Below the pieces are notes generated by a model. The model was not told the DNA's origin. It did no database searches and was given only the letters and a program-made list of their open reading frames with translations. From positions 11,458-75,457 of the forward strand of contig JAJCYG010000065.1 of the NCBI GenBank assembly GCA_029263055.1: a stretch of DNA of 64,000 nucleotides, given 5' to 3'. Both the position numbers and the translations under genes were made by a program. Below, one piece after another: positions 3,363 to 58,000 of the stretch (positions within the stretch are counted from its first letter, which is position 1; each line of letters opens with the position of its first letter). Origin of the DNA: Actinomycetes bacterium. Lineage in GTDB: Bacteria; Auribacterota; JAJCYG01.

Positions 3363-3950
3363 CTACTCGTCCAACCCTAAGATCTTTTTTCCTGATTCAC
3401 TGATCATGCTCGAGTTCCAGGCAGGATCCCAAACCACTTCAACGGTTGCTTTAGCCACGCCAGGAAGGCGAGCAATTTTAGATTCAGCATCACCTGCAAT
3501 GGTGGCGCCCATACCACAACCTTGAGCAGTGAGTGTCATTTTGACATGAATATCATTGTCACCACTGTCTAATTTTTGAACTTCCATGTCATAAATCAAA
3601 CCAAGGTCGACAATGTTTAAAGGAATTTCTGGATCGTAACAAGTCTTGAGTGCGTCCCAAACCCGCTCTTGGCTAAACTCACCTGCTTCAATATCTGAGT
3701 CACCTTGCAAAGCTCCTTCAGGAATCACAGTCCCTTCAGGATAGAGCGCATCCAAATCCTTATCATTAATTCGAGCCAAAGCCCCATAAGAAGGAACTTG
3801 CACAGTAATGTTTCCACCCAAAGTTTGAGTCACCATTGCTTCAGTTCCTTTACGAACTGTCAAAGGATCCCCACTTGGAATCTGAGTAATGGTTGTATCT
3901 CTAAAAAATTGAATGGTATCGCCTGCTTGTAATTCTTTATATGTGCTCAT
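3363..3950 (-). CDS. DUF59 / SufT-like (MIP18 family) Fe-S cluster assembly protein with ~90 aa N-terminal extension
   Basis: The C-terminal half matches the DUF59 pattern: DPEIPLNIVDLGLIY...V.V.MTLT..GCGMG......I..LPGV..V.V..VWDP.W....M...GK..LGL. Confidence 0.55.
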   Translation of the reverse strand: MSTYKELQAGDTIQFFRDTTITQIPSGDPLTVRKGTEAMVTQTLGGNITVQVPSYGALARINDKDLDALYPEGTVIPEGALQGDSDIEAGEFSQERVWDALKTCYDPEIPLNIVDLGLIYDMEVQKLDSGDNDIHVKMTLTAQGCGMGATIAGDAESKIARLPGVAKATVEVVWDPAWNSSMISESGKKILGLDE

Positions 3951-4020: not shown

Positions 4021-4086
4021 CAACCCCAAACCCCCCTCCTGTGGATAACCGGGGGTCAGGCTCACTTATCCACAGGTTTGGGGTTG
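4021..4086. promoter_or_regulatory. Imperfect 21-bp palindrome. The arms are 4021-4049 and 4066-4086, and each contains a perfect DnaA-box 9-mer TTATCCACA (minus strand 4040-4048, plus strand 4066-4074). It overlaps the -35 element.
   Basis: Arm 1 is CAACCCCAAACC[CCCCTC]CTGTGGATAA and arm 2 is TTATCCACAGGTTTGGGGTTG. The 17-nt spacer carries a GGGGTCAGGC motif. The element sits in the divergent promoter region between 3950 (minus gene) and 4155 (plus gene). Confidence 0.5.
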
Positions 4087-4112
4087 ATTTTATCGAGGGG
4101 GAGGGGTATAAT
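4084..4112 (+). promoter_or_regulatory. Sigma70-like promoter for the AKR/Cld-like gene: -35 TTGATT (4084-4089), 17-nt spacer, -10 TATAAT (4107-4112)
   Basis: A near-consensus hexamer pair with optimal spacing lies ~43 nt upstream of the ATG at 4155. Confidence 0.5.
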
Positions 4113-4154: not shown

Positions 4155-6038
4155 ATGACAATTGATGCACAAATTCAAGAAGCTTCAAAAGATCAAACCA
4201 TTGTACAAATTGGACCTGCTGTTTTTGGGATGTGGAGTGGGGGACACTTCATGCATTTTGGCGAAGACATCGGAGAAGAGAATTTAAAAGCTCTTGTTCG
4301 TCAAGCTTACCAAAAAGGGATCCGCACTTTTATGACGGCGGATGTTTATGGCAATGGGAAGTCTGATCAAATGTTAGGTGAAGCTCTTTCTGAGTATGAC
4401 CGCAGTTCTTACAAAATTTTAGGCGCAATTGGTCATGATTTTTATACAGGTAGACGAGAAGGGGAAAAAGGGTTTCCTCGATTTACAGACCCGCGTTTGC
4501 GTGATGAATCTGAGTATGAAAATTATATTCGGATGGCAACTCAAAAATCTTTAGAACGTTTAAGGACTGATTATTTTGATGTGTTGTTTTTGCACAACCC
4601 GGATCAAATTGGTTATACCAATAAAAAGATTTGGCAAACATTTGATCAGCTGAAAAAAGAAGGCATTGTCAAGCAAGTTGGGATTGCACCTGGACCGGCA
4701 AATGGTTTTTCTTTAGATTTGATTGGTGCGTTTGAAGATTTTGAATCAAGTATTGATTGGGCCATGATTATTATGAATCCGTTTGAACCATGGCCTGGAA
4801 ATTTTGCTTTAGAACCTGCAAAGAAACATAATGTGAAGTTGTTGATTCGTGTGGTTGATTATGGCGGCTTGTTTCATGAATCAATCAAGCCAGGCGTGCA
4901 ACTTCCTCGAATGGATCACCGAAGCTTTCGTCCTAAAGGATGGATTGAAGCAGGTTGGGAAAAAATAGAGCAGGTTCGTCCTATTGCTGAGAAACATGAC
5001 ATTTCATTGCTTCAGCTCTCTTGTCAATGGAATCGGAGTCAATCTAATGTTGAAGCAGTTGTGCCGACTTTGATTCAAGAAAAAGATCCGAATGCCAAAT
5101 CATTAGAAGCTCAATTAGATGAATTAGTTGGCATTGCTGATTTAAAAACACTTTCTGAAGAAGAAGTTTCGAAGATTTCTGAGATAGGGAATAACAAAGG
5201 ATGCATGGCTCTAAAAGGAGGCTCCCGTCAGTATCAAGGACCGCCTCAAGGAGATCAATGGCACATTTCAGATAAAAATAACGATGTGGCTAAACGTTGG
5301 GGAATTGAGCCTGACCGAGATTTGTTTTATATGGAAGACCCGCGTGACTTAAGAGAAAAAGGAGCGCCTGTTCGAGGCAAACCTCAGTTTCTTGATCGTC
5401 GACTGTTTATTCAGTTCTTGGCTTTTGGCAATTGCCACAACCCTGCCGCAATTATTGATGTGATTAAAGAAAAGAAATGTGAAGCAGTTGTTTACGCCGA
5501 TGCCAATGACCCTAAAGGAATCGGGCTTGTTTTTATGAGTGAAGATCCTGACTTTTTTGTTGGAGAAAAGAACTGTTTGCTCAACCATCACGCTTTTTCT
5601 GAATTAGAAGACAAGCCAGAGTTTACGATGTTTGGCCGTACTTATTCAAGTGGCCGCGAGCCTGATTTAGAAGATTGGGTGCTTCATAAACCACGCAAAA
5701 CCGCTTTTAATCCAGATTGGCCGTGGGCGATTTGGTATCCGCTGCGTCGTAAAGGATCGTTTGAACAACTGACCCCTGCCGAACAAGGAAAAATCTTATT
5801 CGAACATGCTATGATTGGCCGCAACTACGGCAATGCTGATTATGCTCATGACATTCGAATTGCTTGCCATGGCTTAGACCAAAATGACAATGAGTTTGTG
5901 ATTGGTTTAACAGGGCGTGAATTGTTTCCGCTTTCGCACATCATCCAAACCATGCGCAAAACAAAACAGACCTCGGAATATATTGAATCCCTCGGTCCGT
6001 TTTTTGTTGGAAAAGCAATTTACCAATTCCAAAAGTAG
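4155..6038 (+). CDS. Fusion protein. The N-terminal ~330 aa is an aldo/keto reductase (AKR). The C-terminal ~290 aa is a chlorite dismutase/HemQ-like (CDE superfamily) domain.
   Basis: The AKR part shows MTADVYGNGKSDQMLGEAL, LERLRTDYFDVLFLHNPD and a GIAPGP-type region. The C-terminal part shows YAHDIRIACHGLDQNDNEFVIGLTGRELFPLSHIIQTMR, recalling the H...GLDD.DF...E..DL.....L...M pattern of Cld/HemQ family proteins. Confidence 0.55.
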   Translation: MTIDAQIQEASKDQTIVQIGPAVFGMWSGGHFMHFGEDIGEENLKALVRQAYQKGIRTFMTADVYGNGKSDQMLGEALSEYDRSSYKILGAIGHDFYTGRREGEKGFPRFTDPRLRDESEYENYIRMATQKSLERLRTDYFDVLFLHNPDQIGYTNKKIWQTFDQLKKEGIVKQVGIAPGPANGFSLDLIGAFEDFESSIDWAMIIMNPFEPWPGNFALEPAKKHNVKLLIRVVDYGGLFHESIKPGVQLPRMDHRSFRPKGWIEAGWEKIEQVRPIAEKHDISLLQLSCQWNRSQSNVEAVVPTLIQEKDPNAKSLEAQLDELVGIADLKTLSEEEVSKISEIGNNKGCMALKGGSRQYQGPPQGDQWHISDKNNDVAKRWGIEPDRDLFYMEDPRDLREKGAPVRGKPQFLDRRLFIQFLAFGNCHNPAAIIDVIKEKKCEAVVYADANDPKGIGLVFMSEDPDFFVGEKNCLLNHHAFSELEDKPEFTMFGRTYSSGREPDLEDWVLHKPRKTAFNPDWPWAIWYPLRRKGSFEQLTPAEQGKILFEHAMIGRNYGNADYAHDIRIACHGLDQNDNEFVIGLTGRELFPLSHIIQTMRKTKQTSEYIESLGPFFVGKAIYQFQK

Positions 6039-6049
6039 AGCAAAAACAA

Positions 6050-6349
6050 TTAAGCGTTGGCGTAGACTTTGTGTGAAGGTCTGCCGGCTAAGATTTGTTC
6101 TTTTCCCCAGTTGGTGACTGCGGCAAATTCTTCGGATTGAATGAATTTTGAGAACGCTTCTTTTTCTGACCATTCTGAAACAATCAGGTATGAGGTTGCT
6201 TTAGCCACATCTTTATAAAGATGTGATTTTTCATGGCCTTGCATATCTTTCATGACATTTAACACTTTTGTAAACGCATCTTCAAATGCTTGTTCTTTGC
6301 CTGGGATTACTTCGTAGTTCATTCCAATCGTTACCATAATATCCTCCAA
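6050..6349 (-). CDS. Antibiotic biosynthesis monooxygenase (ABM/Dabb) domain protein. The true start may be the ATG at 6337.
   Basis: At ~95 aa it has the ferredoxin-like ABM pattern MVTIGMNYEVIPGKEQAFEDAF...YLIVSEWSEKEAFSKFIQSEEF. IsdG-type heme oxygenases share this fold. Confidence 0.55.
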   Translation of the reverse strand: MEDIMVTIGMNYEVIPGKEQAFEDAFTKVLNVMKDMQGHEKSHLYKDVAKATSYLIVSEWSEKEAFSKFIQSEEFAAVTNWGKEQILAGRPSHKVYANA

Positions 6350-6530
6350 ATTTGCTCAGAGTGTATCAGAAAGCCAAAAATGTTCAAAATGGTATTTTTG
6401 CGTAGAAAGTGAACAAAAATGAGCGTGATTAAAAACGGGCACTTTTATAACAATTTCTAATAGAAGGGGATGGGAAAGTGAGAATTTGGCCTGCTATATG
6501 CAAATAATAGTTATGAAGCCGGAGGGTTGG

Positions 6531-7883
6531 ATGAAGAAGCAAGGAATAGTGATTTTGTTGGTCATTATGTTAGGAGTACCAGGACAGGTTAAGGCGGTTC
6601 AGTCCAACCATTTTAATGATTATTTAGATGTTGCGGCCTCTCGTTTGTCGACTTCTTCTTCAAGTCTTTTTGAGCAAACCCTTCTTGGATTTACTTATTT
6701 AGGACTGGGTGAGTGGGAAAAAGCAGAAGCACAAATCTTGATAGGAAAAGAAGTTGTTGAGAAAAATAAGAACTTGTTAACAAGCTTTAAACTTTGGTTG
6801 GCTCTGCTTTCATTTCAATTTGATTTTTTAACGGAACAAAATAAATACGGTTTGTTTGGCGAAAAACTCTGCTTAGATGTTTGTTCTCTTCCTACTTATA
6901 ATGATTTGCCTGTTATGGGAAAGAGAAAAGATATTTGGAATGTTGATTGGAGTTGTTTTGTTGCATTAGAAGATATTCGTTTTGGAATAGAAGTATTAGA
7001 TGTTGCCACTCAGCTAACTTTAAATTTAAAGAATAAAAAAACGTTTGAAGTAAAAAAACAAAAATTAATTCAAGCACTTCCATTGTTTGAGTCATTTCCT
7101 GAAAATAGTTTTTTTGTTTTTTCTTATTTAGATGATCAGTCTTCTGACATAGAAGATAAGCGCAAAAGCTATTTTTTTAATGTTTCTAATGGGCTTTACT
7201 TTGTGTCTGATCAAAGAAAAATAGCTATGCCTAAGCCTGGAAAAACTAAGAGAACTCTTGCTTACTTTGCTGGTTTAATGAGAGAAGAACAGTCAGAGAG
7301 GGCTATTGCTAAGTATGAAAAAGCTCGCCGATCGATAAATGGATTACGTCCCTTTTCTGTATGGAAAAAAGAAAATCAGCTTAAGATTTATGATCGAAGC
7401 CATCTTGCTTCATTGAATAAAAAAGAAGATTGGTTTTTTCCTGATCGTTTTAAGGATAAATTCTCTGATAAAGGATTAGCAGATATCTGTTTTGATTTTA
7501 TTAAAACATATTCTCATCCATTAAAATTACAGAAAACAGTGGTTGTAAAAGAAGAGTTAAATTCTCTGATTTTGGCAAAAATAGCTAAACGCCATCTTTT
7601 AACAGGAGAGTATAATAAAGCGGAAAGATGGGCTAAAAAATCTGTAGCTACAGATCAAGATCGTGATGCGGTTGCTTCATCATGGTTGATTTTGGGTAAA
7701 ATTTATCGTGATAAAGCGGACCATGCAAAGTCTGATTTTAAATTTGTATTAGCCGATCAATATCAAGAAAAGAGTGAGCATGCTTTTCAGACTGTGGCAC
7801 GCCACTACCCAACAGCCAGTGTGATTGATTCTAAAAGCTCGTTAAAACGAGTGGTTGAGATTATTCAAGGCCTCTACCAGTAA
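6531..7883 (+). CDS. Secreted hypothetical protein (signal peptide), AT-rich
   Basis: The start was moved to MKKQGIVILLVIMLGVPGQVKA, which has a good signal peptide and an SD GGAGGG upstream. The protein is ~450 aa with no recognisable family. Its composition is more AT-rich than the flanking genes. Confidence 0.45.
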   Translation: MKKQGIVILLVIMLGVPGQVKAVQSNHFNDYLDVAASRLSTSSSSLFEQTLLGFTYLGLGEWEKAEAQILIGKEVVEKNKNLLTSFKLWLALLSFQFDFLTEQNKYGLFGEKLCLDVCSLPTYNDLPVMGKRKDIWNVDWSCFVALEDIRFGIEVLDVATQLTLNLKNKKTFEVKKQKLIQALPLFESFPENSFFVFSYLDDQSSDIEDKRKSYFFNVSNGLYFVSDQRKIAMPKPGKTKRTLAYFAGLMREEQSERAIAKYEKARRSINGLRPFSVWKKENQLKIYDRSHLASLNKKEDWFFPDRFKDKFSDKGLADICFDFIKTYSHPLKLQKTVVVKEELNSLILAKIAKRHLLTGEYNKAERWAKKSVATDQDRDAVASSWLILGKIYRDKADHAKSDFKFVLADQYQEKSEHAFQTVARHYPTASVIDSKSSLKRVVEIIQGLYQ

Positions 7884-41620: not shown

Positions 41621-43150
41621 ATGAAGGTGATGATTGCTTATCCCCCAATCGAGACAGATAAAGGGGTCCCACTTTTGGCGCAAAATCGTCAGTTTCAATT
41701 TTTTAACAATCCAACTTATATTTATCCTGTGATTCCTGCTTATGCAGCGACGTTATTGAAATCTAAAGGATACAATGTAATCTGGAGTGATGGAATTTCT
41801 GAAGGATGGACTGAAGAACAATTTAGAAACCACTACCTTGAAGAAAAGCCTGATGTCATTGCTATTGAATCCAAAACACCTACCATTAAAGCGTACTGGA
41901 CACGCATCAATCGTTTAAAAGAATTATTACCAGAAACTGAAATTGTTCTTTACGGTGACCATGTCACAGCCATGCCTGATGAGTCGATGGAAAATTGTAA
42001 CACCGACTATGTGATGACCGGTGGAGATTATGACTTCCTGCTTTTAAATATTTGTAACCACATTAAAACCAAACGCCAATTAGAAAATAATGAGATCACA
42101 GCGGATAAAGTTGAACCATTAGAACCCGGTGTTTGGTCACGTGTTGACGGTAAAATTGTCAACACAGGTAAATTTGTTCAAAACCACAATGTGCATGATC
42201 TTCCTTTAATTGATCGTGATTTAACAAAGTGGAATCTTTACAGTGAAAAGAACGGAAACTACAAAGCGCTTCCAGGAACTTACACCATGGTAGGACGTGA
42301 CTGTTGGTGGCATAAATGTACGTTTTGTTCTTGGACAACAACCTATCCTAAATTTCAAACACGTAAACCTGAAAGTTTGTTAGACGAAGTTGGAATGTTA
42401 ATTGAAAAATATGGCATCCGCGAAATCTTTGATGACACAGGAACATTTCCTGCAGGGGGTTGGTTGAAAAACTTTTGTAATGGAATGATTGAGCGTGGGT
42501 ATAACAAAAAATTATACTTTGGTTGTAACATGCGTTTTGGTGCCGTGGATTACAGCATGTACAAGCTCATGAAGAAAGCAAACTTCCGTTTTATTTTATT
42601 TGGATTGGAATCAGGGAACCAAAAGTCTCAAGATTTGCTTCAGAAGGGGAACACCCGAGAAGAGATTATTAAATCTTGTAGTGAAGCCGCTAAAGCTGGT
42701 TTAGATCCACATATCACAATTATGTTCGGGTATCCGTGGGAAACTTATGAAGATGCGATGGAGACGGTGAAGTTGGGTAAATATCTTCTTCGTAAAGGTT
42801 ATGCTAAAACCATGCAGGCCACAATTGTGATTCCTTATCCAGGCACACCCTTGTTTGACCAATGTAAAGAAAATGATTGGTTGAAAACATATGATTGGGA
42901 TGAGTTTGATATGCGGGGTGCGGTCATGAAAGTTCCTATGGGTGAAGAGCAGTTGCAAAAAGCTGTGCAACAACTTTACAAAGTGGCTTTTAACCCTGAG
43001 TTTATTGCCCGTCGTCTACTTGCTATCCGGGGTGCGGATGATCTTCAATTTATTGCCCGTGGTGTTAAATATATCTGGGGTCACTTAGCTGACTTTAGTC
43101 CTAGCGGTAATAAAAAAATCAAAGAAAAACAAGCTGCCGCTTCTATCTAA
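41621..43150 (+). CDS. B12-binding domain / radical SAM domain protein (class B-like)
   Basis: The N-terminal region resembles a cobalamin-binding Rossmann domain. The cysteine cluster is GRDCWWHKCTFCS, with Cx4Cx2C spacing. Confidence 0.6.
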   Translation: MKVMIAYPPIETDKGVPLLAQNRQFQFFNNPTYIYPVIPAYAATLLKSKGYNVIWSDGISEGWTEEQFRNHYLEEKPDVIAIESKTPTIKAYWTRINRLKELLPETEIVLYGDHVTAMPDESMENCNTDYVMTGGDYDFLLLNICNHIKTKRQLENNEITADKVEPLEPGVWSRVDGKIVNTGKFVQNHNVHDLPLIDRDLTKWNLYSEKNGNYKALPGTYTMVGRDCWWHKCTFCSWTTTYPKFQTRKPESLLDEVGMLIEKYGIREIFDDTGTFPAGGWLKNFCNGMIERGYNKKLYFGCNMRFGAVDYSMYKLMKKANFRFILFGLESGNQKSQDLLQKGNTREEIIKSCSEAAKAGLDPHITIMFGYPWETYEDAMETVKLGKYLLRKGYAKTMQATIVIPYPGTPLFDQCKENDWLKTYDWDEFDMRGAVMKVPMGEEQLQKAVQQLYKVAFNPEFIARRLLAIRGADDLQFIARGVKYIWGHLADFSPSGNKKIKEKQAAASI

Positions 43151-48802: not shown

Positions 48803-50704
48803 ATGTGCGGACTTTCCGGGGTTTTTTTTGAAGACCCAACCCAACAGATTGAAGAAGTAGCTCTCATTGCCATGCGCGATGTCATGCAATTGCGTGGACC
48901 AGATGAAGCCGGTCTTTTTCGCGAGCCAGGGATAGGTCTGGGGCATCGTCGTCTTTCTGTGATTGATTTGGCTCAAGGGCATCAGCCGATGACCAATGAG
49001 AATGAATCTGTTTGGCTTGTCTATAATGGAGAAGTCTACAACTTTTCCAAACTCCGCTCTCAACTTCAAGGCAAAGGCTATTCTTTTAAAACTAACTCTG
49101 ACACGGAAGTGATTCTACGTGCCTATGAAGCTTATGGTGCGGATTGTGTGCAGCATTTTAATGGGATGTTTGCGTTTGCGATTTACGATAAAAAAGATCG
49201 CTCGCTCTTTATTGCCCGAGACCGCTTGGGAATCAAACCTCTTTATTACACGCATCAAAAAGGAATGTTTGCATTTGCTTCTTCTTTAAAAGCATTATTG
49301 AAGCATGCTGATGTTCCTCTTGAAATTGATAAAGAAGCACTGAATGAATACCTTCTTTTTGAATATGTGCCAGCCCCTCTTTCTATGGTTAAAAATGTGT
49401 TTAAGCTTTTACCGGGTCATCGCGCTCTGTTTAAAGATGGGAAATTAAAGATTGATAAGTATTGGGACTTAAATTATCAGAAGAAAGAGACTAAATCAGT
49501 TCCTGAGTTGTGTGAAGAGCTTAAAGACTTACTCCAGGCATCTGTTAAGCGTCGTCTTATTAGCGATGTGCCGCTCGGTGTTTTTTTGAGTGGTGGCATT
49601 GATTCGAGCGCGATTTTAAGTAGCATGACTGATTTAGGCCACGCCCCTTTAAAAACATTTTCTATTGGGTTTAAGGAAACCTCTTTTAATGAACTAAGCT
49701 ATGCTAGAAAAGTGGCGCAGTATTTTTCAACGGATCACAATGAAATGATGGTGACCCCGCAATCTTTGATTGATCTCTTTCCAAAGGTTTTAGAAGGGAT
49801 TGATGATCCAATAGGAGATCCTTCAGCCGTGCCGACTTATTTGGTTTCTCAATTAGCTCGTCAAAATGTCACAGTCTGTTTGTCTGGAGATGGAGGGGAT
49901 GAACTCTTTGCTGGTTATCCAACTTATCAAGCCTTAAAAATATGGCAGCTTTATTCAAAATTGCCAAAATCAATTCAAAAAGGGATTGCTTTAGGAGTGG
50001 CTGCGCTTCCAACCTCTTTTAGTGATATTAGCTTAGATTATAAATTAAAGAAATTTATGGAAGGAATGCCTTATCCGATTGAACAAGCTAATTTTTTATG
50101 GAAAGGGGCATTCCGTCCTGAAGAAAAAGAACGGCTGCTTTCACCTGAGTATTCTTTAACTCAAGATGGGTACAAAAACTACCAATCCTTAGAACCTTAC
50201 TTAAAGGGGTATCAAGGAAAGGGGCTTTTAGATAAACTATTGTTTCTAGATACCCATGTTTATATGCAAGATGACATTTTGGTTAAAGTCGATCGAATGA
50301 GTATGGCTAATTCATTAGAGGTGCGGGTTCCTCTTTTGGATCATACGATTGCTGAGTTTGCGGCTCGACTACCTGAGAATCTGAAGTTAAAAGGATTAAC
50401 CTCTAAGTTTCTTTTGAAAAAGACAATGGAGGGGAGTCTGCCTAAAGAGATTATCCACCGAAAGAAAAAGGGATTTGGAATTCCTTTTGCGGTTTGGGTG
50501 GCTGAGGCTCTGCTTAAAAACTTTGTGCTAGATTTTTTTGATGAAAAAAAGATTAATGAAGAAGGTTTCTTTAGGTTTGAAGAGATCAAACGCATTTTAG
50601 ATGACCACTTTGGCCAAAAACGAGACAATCGTAAATTGATTTGGACGTTGCTTGTTTTTATTGCTTGGTATCGCGAAGTGCTATCCATTAAAACAAATAG
50701 TTAA
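48803..50704 (+). CDS. Asparagine synthase (glutamine-hydrolysing) family amidotransferase
   Basis: The MCGLSG N-terminal Cys nucleophile and the SGGIDSS PP-loop identify the family. Confidence 0.85.
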   Translation: MCGLSGVFFEDPTQQIEEVALIAMRDVMQLRGPDEAGLFREPGIGLGHRRLSVIDLAQGHQPMTNENESVWLVYNGEVYNFSKLRSQLQGKGYSFKTNSDTEVILRAYEAYGADCVQHFNGMFAFAIYDKKDRSLFIARDRLGIKPLYYTHQKGMFAFASSLKALLKHADVPLEIDKEALNEYLLFEYVPAPLSMVKNVFKLLPGHRALFKDGKLKIDKYWDLNYQKKETKSVPELCEELKDLLQASVKRRLISDVPLGVFLSGGIDSSAILSSMTDLGHAPLKTFSIGFKETSFNELSYARKVAQYFSTDHNEMMVTPQSLIDLFPKVLEGIDDPIGDPSAVPTYLVSQLARQNVTVCLSGDGGDELFAGYPTYQALKIWQLYSKLPKSIQKGIALGVAALPTSFSDISLDYKLKKFMEGMPYPIEQANFLWKGAFRPEEKERLLSPEYSLTQDGYKNYQSLEPYLKGYQGKGLLDKLLFLDTHVYMQDDILVKVDRMSMANSLEVRVPLLDHTIAEFAARLPENLKLKGLTSKFLLKKTMEGSLPKEIIHRKKKGFGIPFAVWVAEALLKNFVLDFFDEKKINEEGFFRFEEIKRILDDHFGQKRDNRKLIWTLLVFIAWYREVLSIKTNS

Positions 50705-50714
50705 GAGGGCGGAT

Positions 50715-51326
50715 ATGTCTGAAGGACATGGCGAACATGACGAGTGGTTTTTTAAATACCCTTCGATCTATCGCTTTTTAAGAACCATTGTCAATCTTGG
50801 GCGATTCACTCAGCCTGTAAAAGAATACCTTCGAGCGACCCCTGAGGAGTCAGTGATTGATGTGGGGTGTGGAGTGGGAGACTTTTCAACAGTGGTTCCG
50901 GGTTCTTACGAGGGCTATGACTTGAATGAACGTTTTATTCAATATGCTCAGAAGAAATTTGGCAATGGGAACAAATCTTTTCATTTCAAGGACGTGTTGG
51001 CTTTACCTGAAACTCAACTTTATGACAAAGGGGTTGTTGTTAATATCATGCATCACTTCACTGATGAAGAACTGAAAATTTTATTGGCTCGCCTCAGAAA
51101 GTTAGTCACAAACTATTTTGTGATTGTGGATGCGGATTGGAACTCTTCTAATCGTTTTCAACGTTGGTTGCTCAATAAAGATCAGGGGAGTCATTTTCGT
51201 GATCGAAAAGATTTGCAAGCACTCTTGTCTCAATATTTTGATTTAGAAGACTTTTCTGTCTTTGAAACACGGTCAAAGTCTGTCTCTTTATTTCGATGCA
51301 TAGCGAAACCTAAACATGAAAATTAA
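50715..51326 (+). CDS. Class I SAM-dependent methyltransferase
   Basis: Motif I is VIDVGCGVGDFS. The start was moved to the ATG at 50715, which has an SD upstream. Confidence 0.55.
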   Translation: MSEGHGEHDEWFFKYPSIYRFLRTIVNLGRFTQPVKEYLRATPEESVIDVGCGVGDFSTVVPGSYEGYDLNERFIQYAQKKFGNGNKSFHFKDVLALPETQLYDKGVVVNIMHHFTDEELKILLARLRKLVTNYFVIVDADWNSSNRFQRWLLNKDQGSHFRDRKDLQALLSQYFDLEDFSVFETRSKSVSLFRCIAKPKHEN

Positions 51327-54300
51327 AGCTGAAAACTATCATTATATTCTTATCTTTTTTTTAGGTTTGACACCCCTTTTGTGGTTTGAGCCTGAGTATT
51401 TGATCAAACAGATTGATTTTGATCTTCCTTTAACTTTAGAGCGATTTAAAGCAACTTTTTTCTCTATGTGGGATTATCGGAATGGGGCAGGTCTGCCGCG
51501 TAGTTTGCATATGCCTGCTTTTATGTTTTTTCTTCCTCAAGCAGCCATGGGGCTTTTAGGGTTTTCGCTTGAAACCATCCAACGTTTTTTCTTTTGTTTT
51601 TGGTTTATGCTTCCTGGTTTTGCTTTTTACTATTTAATGAAGAGTTTGCTTCCTGAAAACAGTTTGGGAAATTATGCAGGACGGTTGGTTGCGGTTAGTT
51701 TTTATATGTTTAACCTTTATTTAGAACCGATTTGGATTGGTTTTAATATGGCTAACTTATCTTCTTATGTGGCTGTTCCCTTTGCATTAGGAGTTTTGAT
51801 TAAAAGCCTGCCTCAAAAAAGCTCTATCTATTTAACGGCATTTAAAGTTGCTTTAATTTTTACTCTGTTTCCAGCCATGGCAACCAACCCTTCTATGACT
51901 CTTATAGCAGCTGTTCCCTTTGTTGTTTTAGTGATTAAGTATCTTTTTGATGAAAAATTCAAATTAGCTTCGATTGGCTATATTATCGGTCTGCTCACTT
52001 TGACAGTCACTTTGTTAGGGCTTTTTAACCTTTATTGGATTTGGCCTGAGGTGAAAAAATTATTTGAAGCGAATATGGTTTTAACTTCTTCGGGTGTGAT
52101 GGGAGGGAGTCTTTCTGAGGATGTCTTTTTTGTGACAGATTGGCTAAAAGGGATTAGTTCGCGTACAAGTATTCCTGCTGTGATTAAAATGCAAGGGGAT
52201 TGGCCTTGGTATCAAGGGTACCGGGATTATGTGTCCACCTACTGGGGAAATCCTCTCTGGATTATTTTAGCTTGGTTTCCTTTTGCTCTTTCTGTCTTTG
52301 CTCTATGGAAAGCCAAACACCAATACAAATGGTTTTTTGGCGGGATGTTGATCGTGGCTCTTATATTAAGTACAGGGTTGCATCCTCCTTTTGGAATATT
52401 GTTTAAATTCTTATTAGAAAACGTGCCGCTCTTTTGGACGATTCGTAGCCCTTGGTATAAGTTTACCTTTTTAACTTGTCTGGGCTATGGTGTGTTAATT
52501 GGATTAGGTTCTCAAATCATTTTTAATGCGTTATCAACAAGAAAAACTAAGTGGCTTAATACACGTTACATTGCCATATTATTAATTTTTATTGCTGTAA
52601 GTCCTACTTATGCATTTCCGTTAGTTAAAGGAAAACATTTCAGACGTCCTGGTCCAGAACAAGGCTATCCCAATCATTTTAAACTTCCTTCTCATGCTAA
52701 AAAAGCAGCAGATTGGTTTAATCAGCAAAAAGAAGGAGGACGTATTCTAGACCTTCCTAGTCGTGGGATTACATACAATGAGTGGGGTTATGAAGGGTTT
52801 CTTCCTTTAATTGGTTATTTCACGCACTGGCCTTTAATGGTCGATAATCATCCACTCCATATTCCGTATCAAGGGGCTTGGGGATCTTCATGGATGTACA
52901 TGCAAAAACTGACACGGAATGCTTTTGAAAGAGGGTTGACCCCTTATGTGTCCAACTTAATGAGATTATTGCGCATTCGATATATTTTACATGAGCAAGA
53001 TTTTAAGTATCCAGTCCTTCCTTTTCCTACATCTGTTAAAGAAATTAATTCAAAGGTAGACTCTATGGTTGGAGTGGAACCAGCTAAAACATTTGAAGAT
53101 AAGTGGAGGGTCTGGGAATTAGAGAATTTGGTTCCAGAAGTCTATTCTATTGATAAGGTCTCTTTAGTGAATGGAAGTATTGATTCTTTTGTTCCATTGT
53201 CTGTTCGGATGAATGAAGAAGAACCTGGTTATGTGCTTTTGCCTGAAATAGGGAGTGAGACGTTTGAGACCTTGATTGCCGAGAAAACGATTGGTGAGGT
53301 GATTAGTTTTGAAGAGTCTCTTATGGATTGGGCTATTGAAAGTCTGAATCCTATTTATTTGCATCGTATCACGGTAAAAAATTCTGAAGAGTGGATGGTT
53401 TCTAAGACTAAAAAGTTTCTTCTTTCAAAGTCTGATGATTATTTGATCTTTGCTAAAAAGTTAGTCGCGAATCGAGAAATTAATTTAAGATTGGGTGTTG
53501 ATTTTACTCCTTATCCTCAGACAACAAAAATACATTGGAATTTAAATCTATTTCAACATTCGATTAAAGAGATTAAAAAATCAGATTTTCTTCCTGAGAA
53601 CGTTCAAATGGTTGCTTTAAAATCACTCGTGATTTTATTTGGAATCCAATACCAAGACGTCTCTTTTCATCTAGTGAAAAAAGCAGCCAATATTTTCTTA
53701 GATAAGAATAAGCAGGGAATTTGGAATCAAGCTTGTCTGGTAATTGATGGAAAAAGTGGATTGAATATAGACCAAGATGTACATCAACTTTCTCAAAAAT
53801 ACGAATCTAAAAAATGGGAGTTTTTGGGAACTCGATTTTTTGAAGAGGGAAGTCACCGGTTGTTTGCTCAAGCTGTTTTAAACAGGCGTTCGGTTTGGGA
53901 GTTTTATGTGGTGCCTAAACAACATTTTATGCAACGTTTTGAACAGGTCTTGAGTCTTTTTAAAGACAAGAGTGTGGGGCAGTCCTACCTTTTATCCTCT
54001 ACATCTAACTGGACTTCAGTAAGTGATTTAGAAAGGAAAAGTTATGTGATTACAGATGTTGAAGGATTGGAGGCCGAGTCAGATATTTATAACCGTACTT
54101 TTGGTTATTCTATTTTTAATAAAGAGTTTGAGTGTTCTGCTTCTGGGTCATATTCAATCATTGTAAAAAATGACTTTGATAAGCCTATAAAAAAATCTTT
54201 AGCTTTTAATGTTATTAGTCTTCAGAAGGGGCCGAAAACATTTGATGTTCAGTTTAATGGGAAAAAGATAAGGCAAATTATTGTTGATCCGATGCAAAAC

Positions 54301-55068
54301 TTTGCCATCTTTCTTAAGAATTTAGAGTTTAAACCAGGAAAGAATAGGGTTTCTCTTTCATTTTATGCCGGTGCTATTCCATTAGGAGAGCTTTTGGGTA
54401 ATGAGGAGCCTCGAGAGGTTCAGTTTGGTGTTCGAAATATTAGAGTGGGTGATTTGACTTTTAGGGAAAAATTTGTGATTCCTTCGGAAAGAGCCTTTAC
54501 TGTGAAATTATTTCCCTTTTTAGGAAAGAACCAAAATAAAAAAGCGTTTCAAGCCGCGAAACATATCTCTTCTGTTGTGATTGATGATCGAGAGTTGTTG
54601 TTGGAGGATGTTTTGGATGGAGAGAAAGGGATGTTTCTTCAAACCAAAGAGCCAATCTTATTAAAAGAGGGGACTCATTTTATTGGGTTTTCAAAGCAAA
54701 TGGACCCCGATTATTTTATTTTGTTACAGAGTGTTGTTAAACCTAAACCCTATGAGTCTAAGTTACAGTTTAAAAGGCTGAATCCAACTCGCATTGAGGC
54801 CCATCTCAACTTAGATCTCGATCAGATTCTTGTTTTTTCTGAAGCATTTGATGGAAAATGGCGTGCTTCTTCAAAAGAGAAAGAGTTTTTTCAGCATTTT
54901 AAGATCAATGGGTATGCTAATGGTTATCTTATCCCTGCTTCTAGTGGTAGAGAGATTACCTTAGAGTATTTTCCTCAAAGAGCTTTCCGTTTTGGGTTGT
55001 CTGTTTCTATACTTTCATTTTTATTGCTTTCACTAACAGCGTTATGGATTAGAAGGTCAAAAAAATAA
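51316..55068 (+). CDS. Large polytopic membrane protein, AftD/DUF3367-like GT-C family glycosyltransferase candidate (paralog 1 of 3)
   Basis: The N-terminal ~450 aa has many TM helices. Its conserved N-terminal block (LLWF...D..LP.T..R....F..W; P.F.F.LPQA..GLLG.S....QR..F..W) resembles the DUF3367 N-terminus. A large extracytoplasmic domain and a C-terminal TM anchor follow. Confidence 0.5.
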   Translation: MKIKAENYHYILIFFLGLTPLLWFEPEYLIKQIDFDLPLTLERFKATFFSMWDYRNGAGLPRSLHMPAFMFFLPQAAMGLLGFSLETIQRFFFCFWFMLPGFAFYYLMKSLLPENSLGNYAGRLVAVSFYMFNLYLEPIWIGFNMANLSSYVAVPFALGVLIKSLPQKSSIYLTAFKVALIFTLFPAMATNPSMTLIAAVPFVVLVIKYLFDEKFKLASIGYIIGLLTLTVTLLGLFNLYWIWPEVKKLFEANMVLTSSGVMGGSLSEDVFFVTDWLKGISSRTSIPAVIKMQGDWPWYQGYRDYVSTYWGNPLWIILAWFPFALSVFALWKAKHQYKWFFGGMLIVALILSTGLHPPFGILFKFLLENVPLFWTIRSPWYKFTFLTCLGYGVLIGLGSQIIFNALSTRKTKWLNTRYIAILLIFIAVSPTYAFPLVKGKHFRRPGPEQGYPNHFKLPSHAKKAADWFNQQKEGGRILDLPSRGITYNEWGYEGFLPLIGYFTHWPLMVDNHPLHIPYQGAWGSSWMYMQKLTRNAFERGLTPYVSNLMRLLRIRYILHEQDFKYPVLPFPTSVKEINSKVDSMVGVEPAKTFEDKWRVWELENLVPEVYSIDKVSLVNGSIDSFVPLSVRMNEEEPGYVLLPEIGSETFETLIAEKTIGEVISFEESLMDWAIESLNPIYLHRITVKNSEEWMVSKTKKFLLSKSDDYLIFAKKLVANREINLRLGVDFTPYPQTTKIHWNLNLFQHSIKEIKKSDFLPENVQMVALKSLVILFGIQYQDVSFHLVKKAANIFLDKNKQGIWNQACLVIDGKSGLNIDQDVHQLSQKYESKKWEFLGTRFFEEGSHRLFAQAVLNRRSVWEFYVVPKQHFMQRFEQVLSLFKDKSVGQSYLLSSTSNWTSVSDLERKSYVITDVEGLEAESDIYNRTFGYSIFNKEFECSASGSYSIIVKNDFDKPIKKSLAFNVISLQKGPKTFDVQFNGKKIRQIIVDPMQNFAIFLKNLEFKPGKNRVSLSFYAGAIPLGELLGNEEPREVQFGVRNIRVGDLTFREKFVIPSERAFTVKLFPFLGKNQNKKAFQAAKHISSVVIDDRELLLEDVLDGEKGMFLQTKEPILLKEGTHFIGFSKQMDPDYFILLQSVVKPKPYESKLQFKRLNPTRIEAHLNLDLDQILVFSEAFDGKWRASSKEKEFFQHFKINGYANGYLIPASSGREITLEYFPQRAFRFGLSVSILSFLLLSLTALWIRRSKK

Positions 55069-55069
55069 G

Positions 55070-58000
55070 ATGAAAAACGAATCAAAGTGGTCCTCTTTAT
55101 TTGATCTGAGTTTGATTTTTCTTTTTGGACTCTTGCCTTTAACTTGGTTTGTAGCAAACCATTTTATTCTTTCAGTTGATTCAAATCTTCCATTTACATT
55201 TGAGCGTTGGATTAACGAAGTCTTTTTTAGTTGGGACACGCACCTTCGAGCAGGGTGGTCGCCTCGGATGATTGAATCGACGCATTTCTTTTTCTTTGTG
55301 CAGTGGTTTTTTCAGTTTTTAGGGCTTGATTTATTAGGCGCACAACGAGCTGTTTTTGTTTTTTGGTTTATGTTGCCTGGATTTACTCAATACTTTTTTC
55401 TTCGATATCTTTTTCGAGACATGCCTCCTGTCGCCAAGCGACTAGCCTGTTTAGCAGGGGTGATGTTTTATATGTTTAATCTCTATCTAGAGCCGATTTG
55501 GTTAGGATTGAATGTGAGTAATTTGTTGGGATATGCGTTTCTGCCTTTATTACTTCGGATTTGGGTTCAAGTTTTAGAAGAACGTCGTTCCCCTGTGTTG
55601 TACGGCTTTTTATTTGCTTTGGTCTCTATCATGGCCTCAGGAATTGCCACAAATCCTGCCAATGTCTTTGTTTGTTCTATTCCTTTTTTTATTTTTGCTG
55701 CGATTGCTTTAGTTAAAGGCTTTAAAACAAAGGGTGGGGTGATTCATCTTATTTTATTCCTCTTTTTTACTCTGTTGTTTTCTCTGTTGTTTAATGCTTA
55801 TTGGATATTAACGGAATGGCAAAAAGTTTTTGTGACTTCTTTTGATTCAACAAAAGCAGCTGGTGAGGGCTTTATTGTTGAAGCATGGTTAGAAGGGGTC
55901 TCTAGGTACACGAGTTTTACTAATGTGATTCGTCTGTTAGGGAGTTGGACTTGGTTTGCTTCTCCTCGGGCATACAATACCTTGATTTTAACCAATCCAA
56001 TTTTTGTCATTTTTAGTTGGTTGGTTCCTGTCTTTGGTTTAATTGGACTGTTCTGTAAGACTCGTTATCGTTCTTTGTTTGGGGTCGTGCTTGTTTTAGG
56101 CATCATTCTCTCTATGGGAATCCATTTTCCTTTTAAACATGTTTATATGTGGATGGTGGAGCATGTCCCATTCTTTTGGTTGGTAAGAAGTCCTTGGTAT
56201 AAATTTATGATCTTAACTTGTTTGGGCTATTCATATTTTTTTGGAGTGGCTGCGGCTAAAATTTATCAGTGGGGAATGACGCCAAGTCGCAATCCTAAAA
56301 GGCGACGGCGTTTGACTTTTGCTGTTGTCTTTTTAGTGATTTTTCTTTCACCTATTTATGCGTTTCCTGTTTCTTTAGGAAAAATGTTTTTAAAACCAGA
56401 AGAGTCTAGTTATACAAATCATTTTCAAGTTCCTGAGTATGTTTATCAAACGAGCGATTATCTGAATAAAAAACCTGGGAATAATCGTATTTGGTCTCTG
56501 CCTGGAAAAGGTTTCTTCATGAATAACTGGGGCTTCTCTGGTTTTTCACCTTTTTTACCGTATGAGGTTTCCAAACCGATTCTTTACACAGATCACAACT
56601 TATCGATCCCTATTTCAGAGCAATGGCTCTCAGCTATTTCTCATCCCTTTCACATTATTCAGAATAGCTTTGAAAAGCAACTCACCCCTAATTTGTACCG
56701 AGTCTTAGGTCTTTTTAATGTAGATACACTTGTGACTGAAAATGATTTTAAATTCGCAGCATTGCCAGTTCCTTATTCTAAGAAAGAAATGAGTGACTCG
56801 GTTGAATTGCTTTGGGGAGTGGATAAAGAAAAATCATTTGGAGAATGGGATGTTTATCAATTGGCTCAACCTCAGCCTCTGATTTATAAAACTCAATCTG
56901 TTAATTTTGTTGAAGATCACATCGATGCACTGGTTCCTCTTTCAAATACAAACCAGTTAAATCGTTCTGCTTCATTTTTTGCTGAAGATTTGTCTGATAA
57001 GCAAAGAAACCTTCTTTTTCAAGACCAGGAAGTGAAGCACTTGGTTTTAAATAATCGATCCTGGTTTGATTTGGCTGTTGATTTGATGGAGCCTATTGAA
57101 AAAGTTCGCCTCTCTTTTGATAAAAAAGAGATTCCAGCCATTGAAATTAATGTGTCTGAAACAGGCTTTTATTATTTCTATGCGACTGCAGGTCGATCTA
57201 TAGGCTGGACGCGGCCTCGGCCTTTAGTCGATAAGCAGGAACTGGCTCAGACCCTTCCTGTGCAGTGGAGTCCTAATCTATTAGAAAAAGAGAATTGGCT
57301 TTCTGTAAACCAAATTCAAATTAAGCCAGTTTTATTTCAAGATCGTCCTAAAAAAGAGATGAATCAAGCGATCAAATGGGAAATGGTGGGGCAGCTTTAC
57401 TTGGAAGAGGGAAAACAGGAGCTTCGAGTAGAAGGATGGCAGCCAGACAAAGGGAATGTGACTGTTGCGGTTGTGCCTAAAGAAGAGGCTCAAGTCAAGC
57501 TGAGTCGCGTGCAAGAGCTCTATAAGAGTTCAACACTTTCTGTTTCTCAGTTCTTATCAACAGATTCTGCTTGGAGGCATGGGGGATGGGCACAAACCGA
57601 TCCTGGATTAGTGTCTCCTGATCCTGCTGTTAAATGGAAGCTAGCTGGCGTTTTTGAAAAATTGTTTGAGTTTCAAGGTTCTTCTCAGTGGCATCAATTG
57701 AGGCATGATGATATTGCGCTTGAGATTGAGAACAATCAGAAAGAATTGAAGCAGACTCGATTGGCTTTTAAGGTACTTTCCATTCAACCGACTCAAAGAG
57801 AAATTTATGTTTTTTTAAATGGAGAGCGGATTCAAAAGCTTAACGTTGAACCGATGGAAGAGTTAGGGGTTTCTGTTTTATTACAGCTAAATCCAGGTTT
57901 GAATAAAGTGCATTTTCAAACAAATGGATCGCCTGAGCCAATCAGTAAATTCTATAAAAATGATGATGAGCGTAGAGTGATTATGCTGGCAAAACAAATT

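Follow-up and report, generated by a model that had tools for sequence, protein, structure and literature searches.

The question raised by this locus is whether one polypeptide really joins an aldo-keto reductase (AKR) to a heme-binding domain of the chlorite dismutase (Cld)/HemQ type and, if so, what the two parts would accomplish together. Such a fusion had been proposed from the sequence of the 64-kb stretch of DNA analysed here (the window), as an unusual architecture that might combine an NADPH-dependent module with a heme enzyme. Table 1 gives the positions of the elements discussed below.

Integrity and distribution of the fusion

The fusion of an AKR-fold domain and a CDE-superfamily (Cld/HemQ) domain within a single polypeptide is confirmed. 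Its reading frame has no internal stop, both Pfam domains lie in this one frame and pass their curated cut-offs, and the peptide quoted in the original prediction, YAHDIRIACHGLDQNDNEFVIGLTGRELFPLSHIIQTMR, corresponds to residues 563-601 of the translation. An independent Logan assembly yields exactly the same 627-aa protein. Moreover, database searches for the fused form returned at least 85 clusters of homologs of about 590-680 aa, 51-80% identical to the fusion protein, and all but one of these full-length clusters carry both Pfam domains. They are found in Planctomycetota, Verrucomicrobiota, Gemmatimonadota, Latescibacterota, Omnitrophota, Sumerlaeota and Bdellovibrionota. What had been presented as an unusual architecture turns out to be a conserved family spread over these phyla. 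The AF2 model of the two-domain protein, computed as a monomer, is confident (mean pLDDT 89.2, pTM 0.82).

The obvious artefact would be the artificial joining of two adjacent genes through a sequencing or assembly frameshift. We found nothing in its support, and the continuous frame, the identical protein in an independent assembly, the fused full-length clusters from many phyla and the confident two-domain model all contradict it; with a probability next to nil, it is ruled out. The best explanation of the data is that the fusion is a cytoplasmic two-module enzyme. Annotation pipelines already name the family 'oxidoreductase/chlorite dismutase', and a literature search combining chlorite dismutase(-like) with keto reductase or aldo-keto reductase found no paper about the fusion.

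Table 1. Coordinates, in the window, of the fusion gene, its modules and key codons, and of adjacent features
Feature	Position	Strand	Description
Inverted repeat	4029..4085	.	20-nt arms 4029-4048 and 4066-4085, 17-nt spacer; divergent intergenic region
Promoter-like TTGATT-17-TATAAT	4084..4112	+	10/12 match to consensus; 42 nt upstream of the ATG
AKR-like/ChdC-like fusion ORF	4155..6038	+	ATG start, 627 aa plus stop, single frame
AKR-fold (beta/alpha)8 module, residues 1 to ~390	4155..5324	+	PF00248, Foldseek, stand-alone homologs
Tyr65 codon, conserved AKR catalytic Tyr	4347..4349	+	Profile alignment to Kvbeta2 and IolS
ChdC/Cld-family domain, residues ~395-627	5337..6035	+	Two ferredoxin-like lobes; predicted heme pocket in the second lobe
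Tyr528 codon, WYPLRR motif	5736..5738	+	Aligned with the ChdC catalytic radical-site Tyr, Listeria Y147 (HMMER, hhalign)
His551 codon	5805..5807	+	Aligned with the proximal heme ligand, Listeria H174 (HMMER, hhalign)
Asp566-Ile567-Arg568	5850..5858	+	Subfamily-specific distal-strand pair; same register in three independent alignments
ABM-domain gene	6050..6349	-	PF03992, E=4e-14; 99-aa ORF from TTG

Fold and conserved residues of the two modules

The C-terminal module combines the fold of a coproheme decarboxylase (ChdC, or HemQ) with the key residues of its pocket. By both criteria it is ChdC-like rather than a chlorite dismutase. Pfam returns the expected CDE-superfamily match, Chlor_dismutase PF06778, at residues 518-620 (E=4e-11; 43.2 bits for a cut-off of 25) and picks up only the C-terminal lobe of the domain. 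AF2 modelling and Foldseek (220-248 alignment columns) delimit a complete two-lobed Cld-like domain at about residues 395-627; the Cld/HemQ-like part first placed at about 340-627 is thus upheld, with its start moved to about 395. The two-lobe subunit organization of ChdCs, in which the C-terminal lobe houses the heme, is found in this domain. Its profile matches in the PDB are ChdC-type chains only, and both fold searches rank ChdCs above Clds.

When compared with the ChdC/HemQ proteins of Listeria monocytogenes (5LOQ/6FXJ), Geobacillus (1T0T), Corynebacterium diphtheriae (6XUB) and Thermus (1VDH), the fusion nevertheless differs in its low identity to validated ChdCs (about 15%), in its distal residues, in an N-terminal lobe that cannot be aligned by sequence and in being joined to a 390-aa AKR-fold module. 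As sequence alignment is confined to the C-terminal lobe, no counterpart could be mapped for Y113 and R133 of the N-terminal lobe of Listeria ChdC. The NCBIfam HemQ equivalog models NF042928 and NF008913 give 29.0 and 28.7 bits, to be compared with cut-offs of 235 and 253.

The pocket residues themselves are strictly kept. According to HMMER and hhalign, R532, F536, R601 and T606 correspond to K151, W159, R220 and S225 of Listeria ChdC, where Arg220 presumably plays a role alongside the propionate contacts. These four residues, together with Tyr528, His551, Asp566 and Arg568, are invariant in all 93 fused and stand-alone members. Tyr528 is also invariant in a set of 39/39 sequences, and His551, the proximal His that the original prediction had recommended looking for, is present in at least 90% of alignment A1 as well as throughout the locus set. 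In the Listeria enzyme, H174 is the proximal ligand, while Lys151, Trp159 and Ser225 contact the propionates (PMC5157759). The radical-site role of the ChdC Tyr has been described for Listeria Y147 and C. diphtheriae Y135 (PMC10427985), whereas Clds have Ile at this position (PMC7611857).

On the distal side, the search for the canonical Cld Arg gave a different result. Asp566 and Arg568 replace Gln187 and Ile189 of Listeria ChdC, so that the canonical Arg is absent, its position being taken by an invariant Asp, and an invariant Arg lies two residues further on the same strand. Characterised ChdCs have a hydrophobic distal cavity without a base, the position of the Cld Arg being occupied by Gln in Firmicutes and Ala in Actinobacteria. 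Listeria Q187 is the counterpart of the Cld catalytic Arg, I189 is 4.3 A from the iron (PMC5157759), and DyPs use a distal Asp, with a distal Arg beside it, to deprotonate H2O2 (PMC7611857). With the distal-side orientation of Asp566 and Arg568 deduced from the alignments and beta-strand periodicity, we infer a polar, DyP-peroxidase-like cavity that would differ from that of every characterised ChdC. The two residues would form a DyP-like acid/base pair activating peroxide. DyP-type peroxidases are nonetheless a more distant fold match to the domain, which keeps the ChdC catalytic Tyr and whose Asp/Arg pair is carried not by the structural element used in DyPs but by the homolog of the Cld Arg strand.

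The N-terminal module folds as an AKR barrel; the subfamily to which it belongs is distinct and very strongly conserved. Aldo_ket_red PF00248 matches residues 24-344 (E=2e-31; 109.6 bits, cut-off 24), a match that like the PF06778 one far exceeds chance, and the best Foldseek match is the AKR11A protein IolS (1pyf; E=6e-19, TMt 0.81). The barrel had been assigned residues 1 to about 330; its boundary moves to about 390, as shown by stand-alone homologs, about 380 aa long, that cover residues 1-390 with 52-58% identity. The module includes a subfamily-specific C-terminal extension of about 45 aa (~345-390), a long insertion in the beta3-alpha3 loop (~93-118) and a 5-residue APGPA insertion.

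The AKR signatures described as clear hold for the barrel fold and fail for half of the Asp-Tyr-Lys-His catalytic tetrad, of which only Tyr65 and His147 are kept. In profile alignments with Kvbeta2 and IolS, D85 falls on a variable hydrophobic position (Met60), Y90 on Tyr65 and K118 on Ala91, and the IolS catalytic His aligns with His147. Position 60, five residues upstream of Tyr65, is M, L, I or V in 92/92 locus sequences, and position 91 of the same sequences is A, M or I, with a single T, L and G. Among the NAD(P)H pocket positions, Asn183 in the beta5 motif and Gly237-Gly238 are kept. Met204 occupies what we take, from the IolS alignment and general AKR knowledge, to be the place of the nicotinamide-anchoring Gln, and the C-terminal Lys/Arg motif is poorly conserved. 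With Asp and Lys lost and Gln changed to Met in all members, the proposed in-built NADPH-dependent redox partner is therefore not established.

The barrel thus shares with IolS (1PYF) the (beta/alpha)8 fold, the catalytic Tyr and His and the beta5-motif Asn, while it departs from AKR11A, AKR6 Kv-beta2 and the AKR-fold regulator KidO by the replaced Asp, Lys and Gln, the two insertions and the C-terminal extension. It displays instead an invariant set of its own, Arg-rich and comprising at least 25 residues, among them D63, H94, D95, R109 and D254-H255-R256, which is the same in fused and stand-alone forms. Kv-beta2 is among its best sequence relatives in the PDB, and an NCBIfam model gives a weak match to the regulator KidO (E=0.24). 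Both Kv-beta, where Asn replaces the His, and KidO are non-enzymatic AKR-fold proteins, and the loss of catalytic residues in the barrel may be of a similar kind.

Gene neighbours, stand-alone modules and the upstream region

The convergent ABM gene pointed out in the original prediction is supported by its Pfam match and recurs next to the fusion in another phylum. Its translation probably begins at the ATG at 6337 (MVTIG...), giving a protein of about 95 aa, and the two ORFs are 11 nt apart. In Planctomycetota, the gene immediately upstream of the fusion, on the same strand, is an ortholog (45% identity over 93 aa, E=4e-29), and an orthologous ABM gene is also found near the fusion in an 80%-identical relative. 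ABM orthologs thus adjoin the fusion in two phyla with differing orientations. They are absent next to most of the fused loci examined, a Nitrospinaceae ortholog has no adjacent Cld-family gene, and no ABM-Cld fusion occurs among the 120 homologs listed.

We consider the ABM protein a probable functional partner of the fusion. Given the conserved adjacency and the precedent of PitA, this small protein would receive or handle the heme product. In PitA of Haloferax volcanii, a ChdC domain is fused to an ABM-like domain that holds protoheme, and its loss causes an aerobic growth defect complemented by added protoheme (PMC5746218). Here the association is with a gene neighbour: ABM is a separate protein, the His-rich linker is missing and the fusion partner is an AKR-fold barrel. 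In Cutibacterium acnes, ChdC is joined to another protein of the same pathway, ferrochelatase (HemH-HemQ fusion; PMC8529089). Unlike this preceding pathway enzyme, the AKR-fold partner has no known tetrapyrrole role.

Two Sumerlaeota-type genomes show the order cydA-cydB-fusion with gaps of 32-33 nt. In one relative the fusion partner is a PCP_red domain, a family that Pfam assigns to a protochlorophyllide reductase subunit. No heme-biosynthesis gene was found beside the fusion, within about 8-10 kb, in about nine contexts with Pfam-annotated neighbours, and no hem gene was seen among the checked ORFs of the window.

Each module also occurs alone with the same invariant residues, the AKR-like one in Verrucomicrobiota and Solirubrobacterales, the ChdC-like one in Alphaproteobacteria/Rhodospirillales and Polyangiales. 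The latter groups use the protoporphyrin pathway, for which ChdC should be unneeded. By Rosetta-stone logic, AKR-like and Cld-like genes that stand alone should be found side by side elsewhere. This expectation was rejected: both lie within 10 kb of each other in 0/153 stand-alone loci, and none of the 76 AKR-like loci has an adjacent Cld-like gene. As to the origin of the fusion, an unrooted neighbour-joining split test separates, by one split, 52/52 fused AKR modules from 75/76 stand-alone ones.

The neighbours of stand-alone AKR-like genes, inspected by eye on representative sequences, gave no consistent signal. They include an MFS-type transporter, ClpB, a possible molybdopterin-type oxidoreductase and a methyltransferase, and several neighbour clusters are ORFs read in the wrong frame in high-GC genomes. 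MoaA/B12-radical-SAM genes precede the stand-alone Cld-like gene in 12/61 loci. These loci are about 73% identical to each other versus about 57% overall; as the linkage is confined to one sub-clade, it is treated as lineage synteny and was not retained as a functional lead.

Upstream of the fusion, the near-consensus promoter said to drive the gene does match 10 of 12 consensus positions. It is not statistically distinctive, since the region holds 3 such sites versus 5.1 expected from shuffles. The DnaA-box palindrome described as overlapping it is likewise real as a palindrome. The perfect TTATCCACA 9-mers at 4040-4048 (-) and 4066-4074 (+), the only two in 64 kb, form the core of the inverted repeat, and by a rough estimate the chance of a second perfect copy within 40 nt is about 8e-4. 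However, the boxes only abut the -35 hexamer, which the extended right arm alone overlaps, by 2 nt, and L083, the 80%-identical relative, does not share the palindrome. A DnaA/origin reading was rejected on the grounds that there are only two perfect boxes, no one-mismatch cluster near 4 kb and no conservation.

Candidate functions of the fused protein

Known ChdCs are homopentamers that convert coproheme into heme b with two H2O2. We tentatively favour, at a little under even confidence, the idea that the fusion is a variant terminal heme synthase made of a ChdC-like module and an accessory barrel. The C-terminal module would bind iron-coproporphyrin III and oxidatively decarboxylate two propionates to vinyls, yielding heme b; by correspondence, His551 would be the proximal iron ligand and Tyr528 the catalytic radical site. 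The weakest step concerns the barrel, which would be something other than an ordinary carbonyl reductase because the catalytic Asp and Lys are replaced. It might be a nucleotide- or ligand-binding accessory that either supplies or senses reducing equivalents and so couples heme formation to the cellular redox state. ChdC has been reported in most Planctomycetota genomes analysed (PMC10991733, PMC5095920). Several observations point away from heme synthesis: the remoteness from ChdCs, the lack of hem neighbours, the stand-alone members in protoporphyrin-pathway groups, the moaA sub-clade, the polar distal pocket and the absence of ABM from most fused loci. The barrel, lacking half of its tetrad and also existing alone without an adjacent Cld-like gene, leaves a role in heme chemistry unsupported, which weakens this explanation.

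An unlikely though substantial alternative is a peroxidase or oxygenase that depends on heme and whose substrate is not coproheme. Asp/Arg would make compound I, Tyr528 would relay the radical and the barrel would bind or convert the substrate or product, as a two-step bifunctional enzyme outside heme biosynthesis. The invariance of Asp566 and Arg568 in distal positions recalls the distal Asp/Arg of DyPs (PMC7611857) and argues for such an activity. So do the stand-alone homologs in proteobacterial lineages that should not rely on the coproporphyrin pathway, the absence of adjacent hem genes, HemQ equivalog scores far under their cut-offs and the Arg-rich invariant residues of the AKR-like module, typical of a real active site. 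Yet ChdCs stand clearly above DyPs in the fold ranking, the propionate-contact positions, kept as Arg/Thr, fit a four-propionate ligand better than a fixed heme b cofactor, the neighbouring ABM and cydAB genes suggest heme handling, and without Asp and Lys the AKR chemistry is compromised. Less probable still is a non-catalytic or regulatory heme-binding protein, that is a sensor, store or chaperone of heme or coproheme, delivering it for example to cytochrome bd or to the ABM protein, with the barrel as a pyridine-nucleotide redox sensor in the manner of Kv-beta and KidO. This would agree with the incomplete tetrad, the Kv-beta2 and KidO matches, the operon-like position after cydAB and the ABM partner, following the PitA model in which ABM simply holds heme. 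Against it, the invariance of Tyr528 and of the Asp/Arg pair over 93 sequences exceeds the needs of binding, the many invariant polar residues of the barrel look catalytic, and Pfam finds no DNA-binding or signalling output domain.

The name 'chlorite dismutase family protein' given by NCBI might suggest a true Cld, converting chlorite into chloride and O2 with Arg568 as the distal Arg. The domain indeed shares PF06778, the fold, the proximal His and an Arg on the distal strand with the Clds of Nitrospira defluvii (3NN1) and Azospira oryzae (2VXH), this invariant Arg being two residues from the canonical position, and Planctomycetes are among Cld-rich phyla (PMC9751292). Nevertheless, Asp566 occupies the canonical catalytic position, Tyr528 stands where Clds conserve Ile and Clds score below ChdCs in both fold searches; moreover, PF06778 members other than Clds are mostly HemQ and often misannotated as Cld (PMC9751292). 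This activity is rejected on residues and fold ranking, and we regard it as highly improbable. A bolder form of the heme-synthase proposal, which we hold to be improbable, is a self-sufficient terminal heme synthase. Its barrel would bind NAD(P)H/NAD(P)+ and provide the oxidising equivalents for coproheme decarboxylation, either through an oxidant generated in situ from trace O2 or by accepting electrons directly.

To our knowledge, nearly all work on coproheme decarboxylase concerns Firmicutes and Actinobacteria. Its oxygen-independent counterpart is reported as unidentified (PMC10965808). The fusion family could bear both on the in-cell source of the oxidant for ChdC and on its anoxic replacement, being widespread in Planctomycetota, Verrucomicrobiota and other diderm phyla and combining the Tyr and His of ChdC with a DyP-like Asp/Arg pair and a joined redox-fold barrel. 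If it were the heme synthase of these phyla, it would represent a natural experiment on peroxide activation in a ChdC scaffold and on coupling to a redox carrier. If, in addition, the synthase were self-sufficient, dependence on free H2O2 from CgoX would be removed, and the protein would become a candidate for the ChdC counterpart that needs neither peroxide nor oxygen in diderm, micro-oxic or anoxic bacteria using the coproporphyrin pathway. Even otherwise, this work delimits two strongly constrained protein subfamilies for which we found no published characterisation, corrects the database label 'chlorite dismutase' and extends to bacteria the ChdC-ABM association known from haloarchaeal PitA.

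A recurrent fusion of two domains

The fusion of an aldo/keto reductase (AKR) with a chlorite dismutase (Cld)/HemQ-like domain described in the original prediction is borne out in this uncultured bacterium. Its single frame matches PF00248 (Aldo_ket_red) at residues 24-344 (Pfam; E=2e-31, 109.6 bits, cut-off 24 bits) and PF06778 (Chlor_dismutase) at residues 518-620 (E=4e-11, 43.2 bits, cut-off 25 bits). No frameshift interrupts the ORF, and the identical 627-aa protein is called in an independent Logan assembly. Full-length homologs found by database search form at least 85 clusters (~590-680 aa, 51-80% identity) that, with a single exception, carry both Pfam domains. An artefactual joining of two genes, a rival reading to which we give practically no weight, is thus ruled out by the independent assembly and these homologs.

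Homolog sources are named Planctomycetes, Verrucomicrobia, Gemmatimonadetes, Latescibacteria, Omnitrophica and Sumerlaeaceae; Bdellovibrionota joined them through a genome scan. The architecture, first taken for a non-standard one, therefore recurs in several phyla and is already recorded by annotation pipelines, as 'aryl-alcohol dehydrogenase-like predicted oxidoreductase/chlorite dismutase' (JGI) and 'chlorite dismutase family protein' (NCBI). Our literature search returned no paper pairing chlorite dismutase (or -like) with keto reductase or aldo-keto reductase, and the words 'fusion' and 'fused' are absent from a review of the fold shared by Clds, coproheme decarboxylases (ChdC, or HemQ) and dye-decolorizing peroxidases (DyPs) (PMC7611857). 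Mean column identity is 60% across both halves in a 39-sequence alignment of fusion homologs. The composition of the gene matches its surroundings (GC 41.1% vs 39.5% for the window); the nearest named relatives of the bacterium's Rho protein are Candidatus Auribacterota/Aureabacteria (78-81%), then Chlamydiota (74-76%).

Both modules also occur alone. Stand-alone barrels (~380 aa) cover residues 1-390 at 52-58% identity and come from MAGs labelled Verrucomicrobiota, Solirubrobacterales and other Actinomycetota. The C-terminal profile matched 688 representatives in a whole-library HMM search (476 at E<=1e-10), among them stand-alone Cld-like proteins of 240-260 aa from Polyangiales, Alphaproteobacteria/Rhodospirillales and Lentisphaeria. 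Our set of 169 loci comprises 16 fused, 77 stand-alone Cld-like and 76 stand-alone AKR-like ones, and in none are the two modules encoded by separate genes within 10 kb of each other. The residues that are invariant in a module do not differ between its fused and stand-alone forms. In neighbour-joining trees, built without support values, one split has all 52 fused AKR modules on one side and 75 of the 76 stand-alone ones on the other, and all fused Cld-like modules lie on one side of a split with 14 stand-alone ones; these splits would fit a fusion that arose once. Relatives of the C-terminal domain with other architectures include P0121, P0129 and P0153. The Cld-like domain is preceded by PCP_red (the Pfam family of the protochlorophyllide reductase 57 kD subunit) in one architecture and combined with Clp_N repeats in another, and it occurs in a 555-aa protein of Amoebophrya, a eukaryotic parasite.

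A ChdC-like pocket and an AKR-fold barrel

A PDB profile search with residues 385-627 matched coproheme-decarboxylase-type chains only: Thermus 1vdh, Listeria 5loq/6fxj/4wws, Geobacillus 1t0t, Corynebacterium 6xub, Thermoplasma 3dtz and Streptomyces 9miq. HMMER and hhalign concur on the register against Listeria ChdC, in which Tyr528, Arg532, Phe536, His551, Asp566, Arg568, Arg601 and Thr606 of the fusion correspond to Tyr147, Lys151, Trp159, His174, Gln187, Ile189, Arg220 and Ser225, respectively. In the Listeria enzyme, the proximal ligand is His174, a cleaved propionate is contacted by Tyr147 and Ser225 (Thr in S. aureus) and a retained one by Lys151 and Trp159, and the distal cavity is hydrophobic and without a base, Ile189 being the distal residue nearest to the iron at 4.3 A (PMC5157759). 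The domain thus has the fold, proximal His and catalytic Tyr of a ChdC. Between the two residues singled out by the original prediction, the proximal His is found (His551) and the distal Arg is not, Asp566 occupying the canonical Arg position. What distinguishes the domain from every characterised ChdC is an invariant polar pair, Asp566/Arg568, on the distal strand; from the alignment and the beta-strand periodicity (strand 565-570 of the predicted model), we infer that both side chains would face the heme. In DyPs, H2O2 is deprotonated by a distal Asp beside a distal Arg (PMC7611857). The domain is remote in sequence, scoring 29 bits with NCBIfam HemQ equivalog models (cut-offs 235-253).

The predicted full-length model (pLDDT 89.2, pTM 0.82) has AKR11A IolS as best structural match (Foldseek E=6e-19, TMt 0.81). 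The claimed AKR signatures hold for PF00248, the fold, Tyr65 and His147, but two of the four catalytic tetrad residues are lost in profile alignments to Kv-beta2 and IolS: the Asp position is Met60 (M/L/I/V across members) and the Lys position Ala91 (mostly A/M/I). Met204 occupies what we take, from the IolS alignment and AKR motifs, to be the position of the Gln anchoring the nicotinamide carboxamide. Judged by its sequence, the barrel is not a conventional carbonyl reductase. Its invariant residues are Asp63, Arg83, Asp95, Arg109, Arg135, Asn148, Asp150, Asn183, Glu211, Trp213, Arg232, Gly237-Gly238, Asp254-His255-Arg256, Arg259, Trp263, Pro304, Asn347, Asp367 and Trp369, with His94, Arg116, Thr305, Gln308 and Glu309 nearly so. 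The subfamily also stands out by its APGPA insertion, its long beta3-alpha3 loop and its extension to ~residue 390.

Genomic surroundings

Features of the window
Feature	Position	Strand	Description
FeS_assembly_P gene	3363-3950	-	195 aa
Inverted repeat	4029-4048 / 4066-4085		20-nt arms, 85% complementary, 17-nt spacer
Promoter-like TTGATT-17-TATAAT	4084..4112	+	10/12 consensus positions
Fusion ORF	4155..6038	+	ATG start, 627 aa, one unbroken frame
ABM gene	6050..6349	-	PF03992
465-aa ORF	6486-7883	+	hydrophobic N-terminus, no Pfam match
B12-radical SAM	41621-43150		in polysaccharide cluster
Asparagine synthase	48803-50704		in polysaccharide cluster
Three large ORFs	51316-61651	two +, one -	1250, 1194, 1014 aa
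Carbamoyltransferase	61868-63532		in polysaccharide cluster

A promoter overlapped by a DnaA-box palindrome had been proposed upstream. The promoter-like site exists, and the core of the inverted repeat is formed by the only two perfect TTATCCACA 9-mers (DnaA-box consensus) in the 64-kb window; but the repeat, between the divergent FeS_assembly_P and fusion genes, abuts the -35 hexamer, the region shows no excess of promoter-like sites, and conservation of the repeat was sought in the 80%-identical relative (GCA_040960375.1) and found absent. The window has no DnaA-box cluster. The repeat could be an operator (for a dimeric regulator) or a hairpin, and any DnaA role is hypothetical. Upstream of the relative's fusion gene (P0002), L083 5131-5363 holds an inverted repeat with 59-nt arms, 98% complementary and 115 nt apart, and nested perfect hairpins of 16 and 11 nt; it looks like a MITE or large structured element. 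The divergent gene arrangement is kept in this relative. The FeS_assembly_P protein bears its domain (DUF59/SufT-like, E=4e-17) in the C-terminal half, after an N-terminal extension of ~90 aa without Pfam match.

The convergent ABM-domain gene (95-99 aa) is there as claimed, 11 nt from the fusion ORF. It is nearby in the 80% relative, with one gene in between, and in two Planctomycetota assemblies an ortholog (45% identity over 93 aa, E=4e-29) precedes the fusion by 72-139 nt in the same orientation. Retained in two phyla through rearrangement, the adjacency suggests that ABM and fusion are coupled. A parallel is PitA of Haloferax, in which ChdC and ABM are fused: protoheme is held by its ABM domain, and supplying protoheme complements the phenotype of the deletion (PMC5746218). 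The ABM gene is missing from most fused loci, and a Nitrospinaceae ortholog has no Cld-family neighbour; there (L173 5945-7285, GCA_021604505.1) it directly follows a Radical_SAM + Radical_SAM_C gene. The ABM subfamily (~94 aa) is highly conserved, with 64-73% identity to the window's member in many lineages, and labelled 'heme-degrading monooxygenase HmoA' by the JGI pipeline.

In two Sumerlaeota-type genomes (L087 7518-11878; L172 5515-9878), the fusion begins 32-33 nt behind the pair cydA-cydB and shares their strand, which suggests co-transcription with these cytochrome bd (heme-b/d oxidase) genes. No heme-biosynthesis gene lies beside the fusion in any annotated context looked at. In one sub-clade only, moaA is directly upstream of stand-alone Cld-like genes. 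Its loci include L132, L135, L143, L144, L149 and L151 (metagenome), with the Cld-like gene 2-22 nt downstream; this moaA looks bona fide (Radical_SAM + Mob_synth_C, C-terminal Gly-Gly) and has a B12-binding radical-SAM gene before it, the whole resembling an operon. Where the window has its 465-aa ORF, L001 and L083 have a protein of 456-459 aa with no Pfam match. Further along the window, the three large ORFs have similar N-termini (…LLWFE…/…LTWF…), and the middle one alone matches GT-C_AftD (arabinofuranosyltransferase-like), weakly; probably all three are GT-C-type glycosyltransferase paralogs in a ~40-kb polysaccharide cluster.

Possible roles of the fusion

We tentatively favour reading the fusion as a variant of coproheme decarboxylase, the enzyme that completes heme synthesis in the coproporphyrin pathway. 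The ChdC-like domain would work with a DyP-like distal acid/base pair, the AKR-fold barrel would be its accessory and the ABM protein the probable heme acceptor. Most of the Planctomycetota genomes that have been analysed are reported to contain ChdC (PMC10991733, PMC5095920). The decarboxylase reading is weakened chiefly by the distance from validated ChdCs, the lack of hem neighbours, the proteobacterial stand-alone homologs and a barrel left unexplained. A peroxidase or oxygenase with another substrate is somewhat unlikely, and a protein that senses heme and redox state or acts as a chaperone is more doubtful. A true Cld is very improbable, since the domain lacks both the canonical Arg and the Ile conserved in Clds at the ChdC catalytic-Tyr position (PMC7611857).

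That the decarboxylase would be a self-sufficient heme synthase, independent of CgoX peroxide, is a long shot. The oxygen-independent counterpart of ChdC is unknown (PMC10965808), and such a synthase, if real, would bear on it.
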